The position numbers were made by a program, and so were the translations under genes. The notes beneath the pieces were generated by a model. It worked only from the letters and a program-made list of their open reading frames with translations. It was not told the DNA's origin and did no database searches. Of a DNA stretch of 64,000 nucleotides, positions 48,424-56,320 are shown piece after piece (within the stretch, counting starts at the first letter, position 1; the number at the start of each line of letters is the position of its first letter). This DNA is from Eledone cirrhosa (Eukaryota), in NCBI GenBank assembly GCA_964016885.1, contig CAXHJY010000495.1, forward strand, positions 19,202 to 83,201, in the 5' to 3' direction.

Positions 48424-48781
48424 ATATCTTTATTAGCCAAAAGGGTACAAAAGAAGGGGACAAATACAAATGGGGAGTTTACATACAGGTATATGAAAAT
48501 AAAACTATTAATAAAATAACAAATAATTGAAATCCCCAATAGGGGGGAGGTGTTACACAGGGGTTGTACACACCCTGAAAAAATGTACAACCCTCATCTC
48601 GAGGAGCACCAAGAGTGAGTACTCCCTTCCTCTCTTCCTCTTTTTCCTCAACCTACAGGCTTATATAGAGAGAAGGCCCAACCACTCGGGCCATCTTTGC
48701 CACATTCACCCACCTTTTATAAAATTTGCTGGGGTACAGCACCTCTCCATCCTGATTCTTCTTCCAAAATGATATTTGAAT
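48424..48781 (-). mobile_element. Tx1-like LINE 3' fragment
   Basis: Minus strand encodes FKYHFGRRIRMER plus the 3' UTR and aataaag; flanked by a ~22-bp near-duplication tatctgtttatct.tttac.ta. Confidence 0.85.
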
Positions 48782-49909
48782 ATGTAAATAGATAAACAGA
48801 TAGATAGGCAAATAGATAGATAGGTAGATAGATAAATAGATAGATAGATAGATAGATAGGAACAGAAAACAAACAAAGGAAGATCCAAAGCAGAATAAAG
48901 AATCTATTAGCTGAATGGGTGGTAGTGGGTATTGGTGTTGGTGGTGTTGGTGTTGGTGGTGGTGTTAGTGGTGGTGTTGGTGGTGGTGGGGGCTGACAAG
49001 GAACACGTCTAAAGAGGGTTCTGTCTCACGTGCTAAACAGATCGATCTATATATAATCAATAAAGTCTTCACAGAAGGAGGGAGTAAAGTTAATAATATT
49101 TATAAAGAAAAAAGATGTCCTTCTTGGCGAATATTGTGTGGTAAAATAACAAATACATACATCAACAACAACCGCAACAGTAATAACAACAACAATAACA
49201 ACAATAGCAATGACAAATACATATGATACAACAACAGCAGCAACAACAATAACAACAACAATAGCAATAACAACAGCAACAATAGCAATAACAACAACGA
49301 TAGCAACAACAACAGCAATAACAACAACAATAACAACAACAACAACAGCAACAACAGCAATAACAGCAATAGCAACAACAACAGCAGCAGCAACAATAGT
49401 AATAACAACAACAACAACAACAACAATAACAACAACAACAACACCAACAACAACACCACTACCAACAACAATAACAGTAATAACAACAACGAGCGTTTGA
49501 CACAAACCAATTGACGCCATTTTGTTCAACCTGTTAATGAAAGAAAAAATTTAAAACACAGAGCAGACGATGTCCGCCGCCACTGTCAAACGATGAGTCA
49601 CTGGTTAACTACTTCTCACCTCCCCCTACCACTTTACACCTCTTCCTCAGTCTCAGGTCTCTCGCTTCATCTCCTCACCCCATCCTCCTGTCTCTCGCTC
49701 TATCCTTCCCCTCCCCCTCCTTTCTCTCCTCCTCGCACTGTTGTCTCTTTCGCTCTCCCCCACCACTCACACACCTGATATTTCTTCACTTCTCTCTCTC
49801 TCTCTCTCTCTCTCTCTCTCTCTCTCTCTCTCTCTCTCTCTCTCTCTCTCTCTCTCTCTCTCTCTCTCTCTCTCTATATATATATATATATATATCTTTA
49901 TCTATCCAA

Positions 49910-49956
49910 TTGTATTTGTCCCCATCTTTTGCGCCCTTGTGGCATATAAAGAAAGC
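49910..49956 (+). mobile_element. Tx1-like LINE extreme 3' fragment
   Basis: ttgtatttgtcccc..cccttgtggcatataaagaaag followed by (ctat)n. Confidence 0.7.
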
Positions 49957-49987
49957 TATCTATCTATCTATCTATCTATAATATGAA

Positions 49988-51794
49988 ACATCTGCTCAAG
50001 AGTCAAGGTGAACGGTTACCTCTCGGAGCCGTTCCATATTACGCGATCCATTCGACAGGGATGCCCTCTCTCCTCCCTTCTGTACGTACTGACTCTCGAG
50101 CCACTACTGCGGAAGCTGGAGCTATTGCAGGGCATCCCTCTGGAACCGGGACTGCGGAAAGCGGCGTCGGCCTACGCCGACGACGTGACAGTAATGGTGT
50201 CGAGCGCCTCGCAAATCGAGGAAGTCGGCACCTTACTAAAGGAATACGAAAGTCTCACAGGAGCGAAGCTGAACCGGGACAAGTCCATCGGTTTGCAACT
50301 CGGATCGTGGAGAGGCAGACCGATGCCTTCCGATGGCGTCGTCGGACGCTGGACGGAAGGACCGGTAAAGCTGCTCGGGGTCTGGTTTGGTCCGGACCTC
50401 CAGGTGGAGAAGAACTGGAACGAAGTGACGGCCAAGGTGTTTGCACTCACCCAGAAGTGGGCCGAGTGCAAACTATCCTTGAAAGGTCGAGCGGAGGTGG
50501 CGAACACTTTTATAGCGTCCGCCATCTACTACCGCTTGACCGTCGTGCCTTGTCCCGCCAAAACGCTCGCCAAAATGGAGCGCGCCCTCTTCCGATTCCT
50601 TTGGAAGAGGCGGGCTCCTTTGGTAAGAAGATCCATCTGCTGCCAACACCCTTCTAACGGAGGGCTGGGGATGCCGTGGTTGACGATGCGCAAACACGCG
50701 CTCAGGCTGCGGCATCTCTACGTATTCCTCACCGGACAACCGGTGTGGGCCCCGTTCGTGAGGCGAGCCTTCCCACGACTCGTCTCGCTGACCGAGCTGC
50801 AGTCCTGGGTCAAGCAGAGACCGAGGAAAATGGGCGACTGGCACATCGAATGTGCTCAGGCGCTCACAGCCCTCTGGCAGGCGGACCCGGCGATCAGTGG
50901 AGACTCCACTTCGTCATTCTATAGAGGGTTGGTCCGCAGCAAGTGCGACGACGCGCTCGGTGAAACTCTAGGCGTGGAGGAAGATGAACTGGCCAGTCTG
51001 TTCGGTAGGACCTTCCGCCCGGGACCGATGGACAACTTCCAAAAGTCCCTGGCCTGGCAGTGCTACCGAGGAGCTCTACCAGTTCGAGACAAGCTCTACA
51101 GACATGGGCGCCCGGGCAGGGACCCTGCAAAAAAGATCTGTCCGAGGTGCGTGCGAGACGAAGAAACCGTCGCGCACGCATTCATACACTGCCCGGGCGT
51201 CACTGACCTGTGGGGCTATGTGGAACGACTATTGTCGCGGGTGGGACCAATCCAGTTGACCACCGAGTCCATTGTCATGATCAAACCGCCACCCTCCTTC
51301 AAAAACGAAGGAGAGGCGGTTTTCCTTTGTGTGATAGCTATGGCGAAAGAGGTTGTATGGTGGACAAGGTTGAAAGGGCTGAGGTCAGACACCTTTCTCT
51401 CCGGCCAACAACTGATTCTTTTTTTCAAATACCACTTTGGAAGAAGAATCAGGATGGAGAGAGAGGTGCTGTACCCCAGCAAGTTTTATGAAAGGTGGGT
51501 GAAAGTGGCGAGAATGGCCCGAGTGAATGGGCCTTCTCTCTATATCAGCCTGTAGGTTGAGGAAAAGGAGGAGGAGAGGAAAGGAGTACAAGCTCTTCGT
51601 ACTCCTGGAGATGAGGGTTGCACATTTTTTTCGGGGGTCTGTGTTACCCATATAAACTGTCTCCCTCTATTGGGGAAAATCGACTAACTTTTAAATTCCA
51701 TCTGTGATAACATTTTACACGTTTTTATTGTATGTAAACTTCCCCCTTTGTATTTGTCCCCTTCTTTTGTGCCCCTGTGGCTAATAAAGAAATA
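49988..51794 (+). mobile_element. 5'-truncated Tx1/L1-group non-LTR retrotransposon, copy 1
   Basis: RT motifs, 3' UTR with aataaa, 15-bp TSD tatctataatatgaa at 49973-49987 and 51795-51809. Confidence 0.9.
50008..51555 (+). CDS. Partial ORF2: RT C-terminal half plus zinc finger (Tx1-like)
   Basis: RQGCPLS, AYADD, LNRDKS, KLLGVWF, NGGLG, CPRC...ETVAHAFIHC; uninterrupted 515 codons; lacks the N-terminus. Confidence 0.9.
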   Translation: MNGYLSEPFHITRSIRQGCPLSSLLYVLTLEPLLRKLELLQGIPLEPGLRKAASAYADDVTVMVSSASQIEEVGTLLKEYESLTGAKLNRDKSIGLQLGSWRGRPMPSDGVVGRWTEGPVKLLGVWFGPDLQVEKNWNEVTAKVFALTQKWAECKLSLKGRAEVANTFIASAIYYRLTVVPCPAKTLAKMERALFRFLWKRRAPLVRRSICCQHPSNGGLGMPWLTMRKHALRLRHLYVFLTGQPVWAPFVRRAFPRLVSLTELQSWVKQRPRKMGDWHIECAQALTALWQADPAISGDSTSSFYRGLVRSKCDDALGETLGVEEDELASLFGRTFRPGPMDNFQKSLAWQCYRGALPVRDKLYRHGRPGRDPAKKICPRCVRDEETVAHAFIHCPGVTDLWGYVERLLSRVGPIQLTTESIVMIKPPPSFKNEGEAVFLCVIAMAKEVVWWTRLKGLRSDTFLSGQQLILFFKYHFGRRIRMEREVLYPSKFYERWVKVARMARVNGPSLYISL

Positions 51795-55790: not shown

Positions 55791-55952
55791 ATCTATCTAT
55801 CTTTCTCTCTCTCTCTATCTATCTATCTATCTATCTATCTATCTATCTGTCTGTCTGTCTGTCTGTCTGTCTGTCTGTCTGTCTGTCTGTCTGTCTATAT
55901 ATCTATCTGTCTGTCTGTCTGTCTATCTGACTGTCTGTCTACCTGACTGTCC

Positions 55953-56217
55953 TGGCCCGAGTTATTGGGCCTTCTCCGTATATAAACCTGTAGGTTGAAG
56001 AAGAGAACAAAAGGAAGAAAGGAGCACTTGCACAACATGGTCCTGAACTTGAGGGTTGTTCTATCTACGGGGTATTAAACGACCCATTTGTAACGCCTCC
56101 CTCCTATTCGGGATTTCGATTGTTATATTTTAATGTTAACATTTTTTTTACACGATTGTATGTAAAATCCCCGCCATATGTCTTTGTATTGCCGCCCTTG
56201 TGGCAAATAAAGACATA
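55953..56217 (+). mobile_element. Tx1-like 3' fragment
   Basis: tggcccgag..gggccttctc..cctgtaggttga through gtggcaaataaagac. Confidence 0.85.
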
Positions 56218-56249
56218 TATCTGTCTACCTGTCTTTCTGTCTATCTATG

Positions 56250-56320
56250 GACTTGTTTTGTAAACTCCCCCCATTGCACTTGTCCCACTTTTGATGCCCT
56301 GGTGGCAAATAAAAGAAACA
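56250..56320 (+). mobile_element. Tx1-like extreme 3' fragment
   Basis: tgtaaactcccccc..ggtggcaaataaaagaaacatatct. Confidence 0.7.

Follow-up and report, generated by a model that had tools for sequence, protein, structure and literature searches.

TATC-flanked insertions of a Tx1-like LINE in Eledone cirrhosa: a probable TATC target for an APE-type retrotransposon

In the Tx1 clade of non-LTR retrotransposons, ORF1 lies upstream of ORF2. Several APE-type LINEs of this clade reside in microsatellites, namely Kibi in (TC)n, Koshi in (TTC)n and crocodilian Tx1 elements in (TTCC)n/(TTTC)n (PMC4494074, PMC3812793), and in vitro the Tx1L endonuclease shows sequence specificity (PMC1950540); how the specificity of APE endonucleases changes towards microsatellites is described as not well understood (PMC3812793). 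Crocodilian Tx1-Mar and SINEU-3 copies form tandem insertions that sandwich a 16-nt duplication, in keeping with sequential insertion at one site, and repetitive sequence at more than 20% of flanks has served as the mark of target preference in Tx1 elements (PMC4494074). Among cephalopods, L1-Tx1 elements have expanded in coleoids (PMC8967140), and 13 L1-Tx1 families, with 421 insertions between them, are reported as recently active in O. vulgaris in a paper whose main text does not contain the word ‘target’ (PMC13282606). The family described below is plausibly among the octopus L1-Tx1 families of such repeat annotations.

The window, that is, the whole 64-kb stretch of E. cirrhosa DNA analysed, carries between 48427 and 56320 a single non-LTR retrotransposon family, comprising at least two subfamilies, in nine copies that are all truncated at the 5' end (Table 1). 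All nine Tx1-like fragments that the initial annotation had placed within 8 kb were recovered, their coordinates shifting by a few nucleotides, and its statement that the window holds no other copy agrees with blastn, tblastn and an nhmmer profile of the 3' end. A repeat search hinted at a tenth copy near 47105, but nhmmer did not recover it. Allowing for tandem re-insertion, the nine copies occupy four target loci (c1; c2-c3-c4; c5-c6; c7-c8-c9), and the probability that four random loci span no more than 7.9 kb of 64 kb is about 0.007, uncorrected for the post hoc choice of window. As in APE-type LINEs, 5' truncation is combined with a fixed 3' end and target-site duplication; a conserved stem-loop in the 3' UTR was unsupported in c3, c7 and c5 (z = 0.19, 1.66 and -0.49, respectively). 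Simple repeats are extremely abundant across the window.

Table 1. Element copies, target-site duplications and flanking repeats in the window
Feature	Position	Strand	Description
c1	48427-48780	-	354 nt, 5'-truncated: ORF2 end and 3' UTR; 301/346 identical to c3; inside a degenerate (GATA)n tract, with a flanking duplication of 27-28 nt (3 mismatches)
c1 5' flank	48781-48858	-	degenerate (TATC)n on the element sense strand
c2	49910-49956	+	47-nt 3' end; 40/45 to c3; nhmmer E 5e-12; flanked by TTTATCTATCCAA (5') and (TATC)5 (3')
c3 target-site duplication, 5' copy	49973-49988	+	16 nt, TATCTATAATATGAAA
c3	49989-51794	+	1.8 kb, 5'-truncated; open 522-aa frame (C-terminal half of RT, zf-RVT); 3' UTR ends AATAAAGAAA-TA
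c3 duplication, 3' copy	51795-51810	+	also the 5' duplication of c4
c4	51811-51835	+	3' end of ~25 nt, tandem insertion into the c3 site; 23/28 to c7
Third duplication copy	51836-51850	+	15 nt
c5 5' flank	52831-52872	+	(TATC)10, no element copy before it
c5	52873-53178	+	306 nt; 292/305 identical to c3; TAT microhomology at the 5' junction
c5-c6 spacer	53179-53243	+	(TATC)n
c6	53244-53364	+	~120 nt; 72/77 to c3; 3' flank (CT)n, an exception
c7 5' flank	53777-53818	+	(TATC)10, no element copy before it
c7	53819-55789	+	1.97 kb; second subfamily, 81% to c3; open frame of ~565 aa with RVT_1
c7-c8 spacer	55790-55952	+	compound (TATC)n/(TC)n/(TGTC)n
c8	55953-56217	+	265 nt, older copy; 217/258 to c7; flanking duplication of 12 nt exact (18 nt with 2 mismatches)
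c9	about 56253-56320	+	3' end of ~65 nt; 50/58 to c3; nhmmer E 2e-15; followed by TATCTATGTATCTG

The junctions of these copies are strikingly uniform. TATCT lies 0-6 nt from the 3' end in eight of the nine, as the initial annotation had noticed, compared with 0.0098 of the positions outside the cluster (binomial p 7e-16, the copies being only partly independent). The joint reads AATAAAGAAA-NN-TATCTAT in six (c2, c3, c4, c5, c7 and c9), the remaining ones being TATCTGT (c8), TATTTATCT (c1, where the first unit is TATTT) and the (CT)n of c6. The two bases ahead of TATCT are variable (TA, CA, GA, GC or CT), the register of TATCT itself is fixed, and poly(A) is absent. On the other side, TATCTAT is present no more than 20 nt upstream of the 5' end in 8/9 copies (background 0.0045), c8 being the exception, and in all four that lack an upstream neighbour (c1, c2, c5 and c7). 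The (tatc)n noted earlier ahead of several copies is thus real, and what had been named as evidence against a target preference, TATC at 3' ends only and random 5' flanks, is not the pattern seen. The TATC repeat occupies the element sense strand at 4/4 loci, its strand flipping with c1. The c3 duplication is perfect, non-repetitive and begins with TATCTAT, and its 16-mer occurs on both strands of the window only at 49973 and 51795. Within the pure arrays around c5 and c7, the limits of a duplication are not definable. Since the sequence that follows TATCTAT differs from locus to locus and, at c3, recurs as a duplicate on the 5' side, at least part of it is target-derived; judged from sequence alone, the first 7 nt past the junction may be either target or RNA tail, both being compatible.

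The distribution of repeats in the window points only in part the same way. (TATC)n amounts to 306 nt, 259 of them inside the cluster, and 8 of the 11 tracts of (TATC)3 or more adjoin copies. Far commoner microsatellites, (TA)n with 9071 nt, (CA)n with 1878 and (ACC)n with 1518, are unoccupied by copies. Against a target preference count three empty (TATC)3-4 tracts (4006, 23575 and 25988) outside the cluster, together with 41 empty TATCTAT/ATAGATA 7-mers. The proposed specificity for GATA/ATCT repeats stands as a preference for TATC/ATCT but not as a need for long (ATCT)n arrays, because c3, c4 and c9 each sit at a single TATCTAT unit.

How are the tandem groups to be understood? The c2-c3-c4 locus represents three insertions at one site. 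By sequence alone c4 is weak (nhmmer E=4.3), and its call rests on its being bracketed by one 15-mer. The same arrangement recurs in the short contigs of sequencing run X5, which stem from a near-identical genome (0.90 of words in common), possibly that of the window's own species: among the best 12 of 27 junction rows, seven join the 3' end head-to-tail to another 5'-truncated copy, and all seven do so through TATCTAT (positions 51801/51842), with C as the next base in 6/7. Spacers in these tandems measure 10-38 nt, unlike those of the window. Repetitive flanks exceed the 20% mark, at 8/9 in the window and 7/7 of the X5 3'-end joints among those best 12 of 27 rows, and the suggested TATC/ATCT preference draws support from both flanks, the 16-nt non-repeat duplication, the strand flip at c1 and the seven X5 joints. 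Of the self-reinforcing clustering proposed at the outset, local tandem re-use of one site is borne out, whereas the presence of four loci within 8 kb is left unexplained.

These features are probably best accounted for by a predicted APE endonuclease whose likely recognition sequence is TATCTAT(C), the motif at the heart of (TATC)n/(GATA)n microsatellites, and which has left nine 5'-truncated, TATC-flanked Tx1-like insertions. Judging from P0481, a protein 70% identical to c3, the element would encode an ORF2 with APE, RT and zinc finger. At the edge of a TATCTAT unit its enzyme would nick the strand that reads ATAGATA, and reverse transcription would be primed at an RNA end of the form ...AAUAAAGAAA-NN, poly(A) being absent from the observed junctions. 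A staggered second cut would then create a duplication of ~10-30 nt that starts with TATCT, as is seen at c3/c4 and is likely at c1/c8. Because such a duplication would keep the target intact next to each new insertion, as is seen, later copies, including those of other subfamilies, would land head-to-tail at that one site, an arrangement likewise seen. Slippage may finally extend some of the duplicated TATC units into arrays.

It is conceivable, albeit on balance unlikely, that the choice of site is instead mainly RNA-guided, a transcript ending in UAUCUAU(C), through a tail or read-through, pairing with (GATA)n nicked by a relaxed endonuclease. A bias through template-primer pairing has been proposed for microsatellite-tailed RTE elements, and tail-target microhomology is known in these and other LINEs (PMC6007223); the junctions are free of poly(A), all X5 3' junctions shown (the best 12 of 27 rows) pass through one 7-nt sequence, and TATC at both flanks is predicted by RNA guidance as well. 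Yet the bases before TATCT vary while its register is fixed, the sequence after TATCTAT is locus-specific and duplicated 5' of c3, and specificity is known for Tx1-type endonucleases (PMC1950540). Guided priming is compatible with a specific endonuclease; both can act together, and pairing of the RNA tail may contribute to target choice. A far less probable account, already largely refuted within the window, makes (TATC)n merely an element-encoded tail, with random insertion and passive build-up in a repeat-rich region under low selection. In its favour, 4/5 of the 5' flanks of copies with an upstream neighbour consist of the preceding copy's 3' spacer with TATCTAT, possibly tails, and copies adjoin most of the longer (TATC)n tracts; it is opposed by TATCTAT 5' of all four copies without such a neighbour (0.0045 each), by the three insertions at c2-c3-c4 and the recurrent short-spacer tandem joints in X5, and by the emptiness of the far commoner TA, CA and ACC tracts. 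Least credible of all is a local duplication or assembly artefact, which the wealth of simple repeats and the 96% identity of c3 and c5 might suggest, but against which stand divergences of 4-19% or more between copies, differing 5' truncation points, both orientations, unique inter-locus segments without a match to one another, and independent contigs carrying tandem joints with other spacers.

Because all copies are 5'-truncated, the window itself lacks an endonuclease domain; RVT_1 is present in c3 and c7, and zf-RVT scores 29.6 bits in c3 (above the cut-off) and 21.9 in c7 (below it). The first 25 nt of c7 show an apparent 1-nt frame offset in a by-eye comparison with P0238 and P0481. Between c3 and c7, dN/dS is 0.20 over 519 codons (dS ~0.64), and two coding lineages therefore have the target in common. 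P0481 contains Exo_endo_phos, RVT_1 and zf-RVT, and its scores against the U2-flanked loci L022, L006 and L008 (455, 418 and 390 bits), compared with 175 against human L1, favour a Tx1-type over a human L1 affinity. The Tx1-like identity originally assigned is supported by the predicted domain content of P0481 and by similarity scores. Of 14 proteins, no more than 5 matched a regular expression for the hairpin loop of the endonuclease.

In trees of RT and of full ORF2 (61 and 48 rows, none of them a named Tx1L or vertebrate L1; LG+G4 without a mixture model, one search each, long-branch warnings; near-duplicates and arbitrary members of unnamed matches left out), the lineage is a branch of its own, joined in a polytomy by U2-flanked, 5S-flanked and fish pol-like groups. 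The RT phylogeny called for by the initial annotation thus yields a separate branch, but within a polytomy: the fish proteins BAC82609/06/03, which we take to be Kibi/Koshi-type elements, are sister to it in the RT tree (89/59) and not in the full-ORF2 tree, so that these trees do not indicate a supported kinship with Kibi and Koshi. A metagenome scan gave 80 distant loci (best-segment identity 24-54%, long matches 24-35%), which served only as tree anchors and showed no DNA similarity to the window element; no relatives were found in viral contigs, GTDB genomes or plasmids, and the 41 places where viral sequence matched a 17-nt pattern of the 3' end are due to chance. The metagenome, viral and GTDB searches yielded neither a full-length copy nor DNA from a closely related element.

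With Kibi, Koshi and crocodilian Tx1 the element has in common insertion into microsatellites, as a Tx1-like LINE that is presumably of APE type; it differs in its octopod host and in its purine-containing target, TATC, which is absent from the lists of targets published in PMC4494074 and PMC3812793, their polypyrimidine type being represented by the (CT)n 3' flank of one copy in nine. Keno, which targets U2 snRNA, is the best-scoring target-anchored element and has an ORF2 of similar length (~1150 aa), but the lineage lies outside the U2 clade in both trees, and the window has no match to U2 or any Rfam family. The tandem insertion around a 16-nt duplication at c3/c4 resembles that of Tx1-Mar/SINEU-3, where, by contrast, the target is Mariner and SINEU-3 is non-autonomous. 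In RTE-clade LINEs with microsatellite tails there is a correlation between the 3'-end repeat unit and the sequence with which the duplication begins (PMC6007223), whereas the ORF2 described here belongs to the L1/Tx1 group (best PDB match, human L1 ORF2p) and has a C-terminal zinc finger. No TATC target was found in the literature searched, Repbase being outside this search.

The kind of element, a site-specific Tx1-type LINE, is familiar, and TATC is probably a target new to it. Target-specific Tx1 elements and tandem re-use of sites being known, the general picture is unchanged; what the APE retrotransposons specific for microsatellites, few of which are known, gain is a target motif and a mollusc host, in a lineage that does not group with the known ones and that offers a natural comparison for changes in APE endonuclease specificity. 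The element offers a candidate site-specific RNA-based insertion enzyme and, for octopus genomes, a testable source both of local clusters of LINE copies and of GATA-type microsatellites. A bolder reading, which we offer tentatively and consider somewhat doubtful, is that an invertebrate Tx1-type lineage separate from Kibi/Koshi independently evolved microsatellite targeting and not only finds its target but also breeds it, through TATCTAT duplication, slippage and the re-use of sites by successive subfamilies over a long period (dS ~0.64). If this were true, the endonuclease would be a new compact (GATA)n-specific nickase, and octopod (GATA)n arrays would to a large extent be landing pads built by the element itself.

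Nine fragments of a single non-LTR retrotransposon family lie within the region 48427-56320 (see table), all of them sharing a 3' end of the form GGC[A/T]AATAAAGA(AA)-like and differing in their 5' truncation points. The initial annotation had described nine Tx1-like insertions in 8 kb and no copy elsewhere in the window; all nine were recovered, and blastn, nhmmer and tblastn found no further family copy in the window. Copies c3 and c7 are 81% identical in DNA, and their dN/dS of 0.20 together with a dS of 0.64 (519 codons) marks them as two long-separated coding subfamilies.

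Copies of the Tx1-like family, numbered along the window
Copy	Position	Strand	Remarks
c1	48427-48780	minus	87% identical to c3
c2	49910-49956		
c3	49989-51794		long open frame, RVT_1 + zinc finger
c4	51811-51835		~25 nt; weak taken alone (nhmmer E 4.3)
c5	52873-53178		96% identical to c3
c6	53244-53364		
c7	53819-55789		long open frame, RVT_1 + zinc finger
c8	55953-56217		84% identical to c7
c9	about 56253-56320		

The cluster of TATC-flanked insertions is real and locally well supported. In six of the nine copies a AATAAAGAAA-like 3' end is followed by two variable bases and then TATCTAT, the exceptions being c8 (TATCTGT), c1 (TATTTATCT) and c6, which runs into (CT)n. TATCT occurs 0-6 nt from the 3' end of 8/9 copies, compared with 0.98% of positions outside the cluster, and TATCTAT at most 20 nt from the 5' end, again of 8/9 copies (background outside the cluster, 0.45%). 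The proposed specificity for GATA/ATCT repeats is supported on both flanks; at all loci the repeat keeps to the sense strand of the element, turning to (GATA)n with c1, and a perfect 16-mer, TATCTATAATATGAAA, stands on both sides of c3 and nowhere else in the window. A third, 15-nt copy of this duplication directly follows c4, and imperfect flanking duplications in degenerate repeat accompany c1 (27-28 nt) and c8 (12-18 nt); inside pure arrays the boundaries of duplications cannot be set. This is no preference for microsatellites as a class: the window contains 9071 nt of (TA)n, 1878 of (CA)n and 1518 of (ACC)n, as against 306 of (TATC)n, of which 259 fall within the cluster. Outside it, three short TATC tracts and 41 TATCTAT/ATAGATA seven-mers are empty, which counts against saturation. 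The window's only (TGTC)n tracts of at least 12 nt (70 nt, 55848-55952) occupy the c7-c8 spacer, suggesting drift from (TATC)n to (TGTC)n; the junction of c8 reads TATCTGT.

What could produce such junctions? We consider it probable that the APE domain nicks at TATCTAT(C), followed by target-primed reverse transcription and reuse of the duplicated target. The strand nicked would be ATAGATA, with the cut at the edge of TATCTAT(C); reverse transcription would begin at the 3' end of the RNA, and a second, staggered cut would leave a duplication of about 10-30 nt, a ready site for the next copy; arrays may also have grown by slippage. Junction sequences, duplications, tandem reuse and orientation are direct observations, from which the nick, the endonuclease's part in it and the growth of arrays are inferred. 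Rather unlikely, although it may act together with endonuclease choice, is that pairing of a UAUC-ending RNA with nicked DNA gives most of the bias. A pure element tail with random insertion draws on the five 5' flanks that are spacers behind another copy and could therefore be tails; yet c1, c2, c5 and c7, which lack such a spacer, carry 5' TATCTAT in 4/4 cases, c5 and c7 each behind (TATC)10 with unrelated sequence upstream of the arrays, so that this reading is largely excluded and very improbable. Least credible of all, and likewise largely excluded, is that the cluster arose by duplication or artefact, as the segments between loci do not duplicate each other.

The nine copies resolve into four target loci (c1; c2-c3-c4; c5-c6; c7-c8-c9), with within-locus gaps of 33, 17, 67, 165 and 45 nt. 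Of the self-reinforcing clustering initially suggested, tandem reuse of one site stands, because insertion duplicates the target; such reuse does not explain the grouping of the four loci. Four random loci would span at most 7.9 kb of 64 kb with a chance of ~0.007, unadjusted for window choice, and their proximity may be due to chance, to local tolerance or to a patch rich in TATC.

Words of c3 are present in 10 of the 18 sequencing runs listed. With 49978-51862 of the window as reference, 22242 records matched in contig set X5 (organism D, with a near-identical genome), 2184 in contig set X1 and none in the raw-read runs X11 and X12. Among the best 12 of 27 X5 junction rows, seven have a 3' end that leads back into the element and are head-to-tail copies at other loci. 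All seven depart from the reference where TATCTAT ends (51801 or 51842), six continuing with C, and their 10-38-nt spacers are locus-specific in sequence. In this selected subset of rows, from an organism that may be the window's own species, tandem insertion recurs through TATCTAT, whose 7 nt could be target or tail.

Among named proteins the closest belong to Argonauta hians (61%) and to Acanthosepion pharaonis (54%, covering 30% of the query), which makes an octopod the likely host. P0481, a protein relative sharing 70% identity with c3, combines APE, RT and zf-RVT domains. Metagenome loci with distantly related ORFs, defined by their own flanks, served as anchors: U2 (L006, L008, L022), which we infer to be Keno-type, and 5S rRNA (L017, L019), which we take to be Mutsu-type. 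P0481 scored 455, 418 and 390 bits against the U2-flanked proteins, 351 and 320 against the 5S-flanked ones, 316 against BAC82609 and 175 against human L1 ORF2p. In trees of RT (61 rows) and full ORF2 (48 rows), neither including Tx1L or vertebrate L1, the octopod group forms a clade (support 100) and, again at 100, pairs with a sister clade of about 29 full-length ORF2s (identity mostly 34-41%), both within a polytomy of Tx1-type groups. The fish group BAC82609/06/03, presumably the Kojima-Fujiwara Kibi/Koshi-type deposits, is sister to the octopod lineage at 89/59 in one tree but not in the other, and kinship with Kibi/Koshi is not established. The Tx1-like identity first proposed is favoured by the domains of P0481 and by bit scores above that to human L1, both trees giving only the polytomy; the element behaves as a target-specific Tx1 does, and membership of the Tx1 clade is probable.

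Two further protein matches, P0242 (63% identical to c3) and P0475, are labelled Herbaspirillum sp. (one MAG record, one WP_ record); P0242 probably stems from animal host DNA that ended up in a bacterial bin. Separately, a single-copy, full-length L1-group ORF of 1265 aa (L025:170-4209) has (ATTG)9 next to the end of its 3' region and is possibly a further tetranucleotide-associated element, and a second L1-group ORF (L037:4112-9356, 1217 aa) possibly targets U1, a U1 snRNA match lying at the contig end 1.4 kb after the stop codon.

The window holds other repeats too. A near-perfect 111-nt palindrome (52718-52828; fold z = -16) lies directly upstream of the (TATC)10 holding c5, has partial relatives at 8174-8402, 20924-21076, 23410-23545 and 27232-27279, and could be a MITE-like element or one end of some other mobile element. 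A 185-nt SINE-like unit is repeated three times in tandem at 56645-57199 and has a 76% copy across the cluster, at 47700-47884; its truncated version recurs about seven times in tandem at 59787-60550, with (ACC)n between the copies; the window's SINE-like repeats look, we presume, octopus-like. A 37-nt tandem repeat (47361-47693) has about nine copies at 95-100% and one more at 47878.

At the level of listings and abstract openings, no report of a TATC/GATA-targeting Tx1 was found in the literature, and the family may already be in Repbase/Dfam, whether annotated with a target or not. Microsatellite targets named in passages of earlier papers are ACAY, AC, TC, TTC, TAA, TTCC, TTTC and TG (PMC4494074, PMC3812793, PMC8967140, PMC2684134, PMC1950540, PMC6007223, PMC4746887, PMC13282606, PMC4640811, PMC5035012, PMC10294476). 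A target-specific Tx1-type element is itself of an already known kind; what appears to be new is the proposed TATC target.
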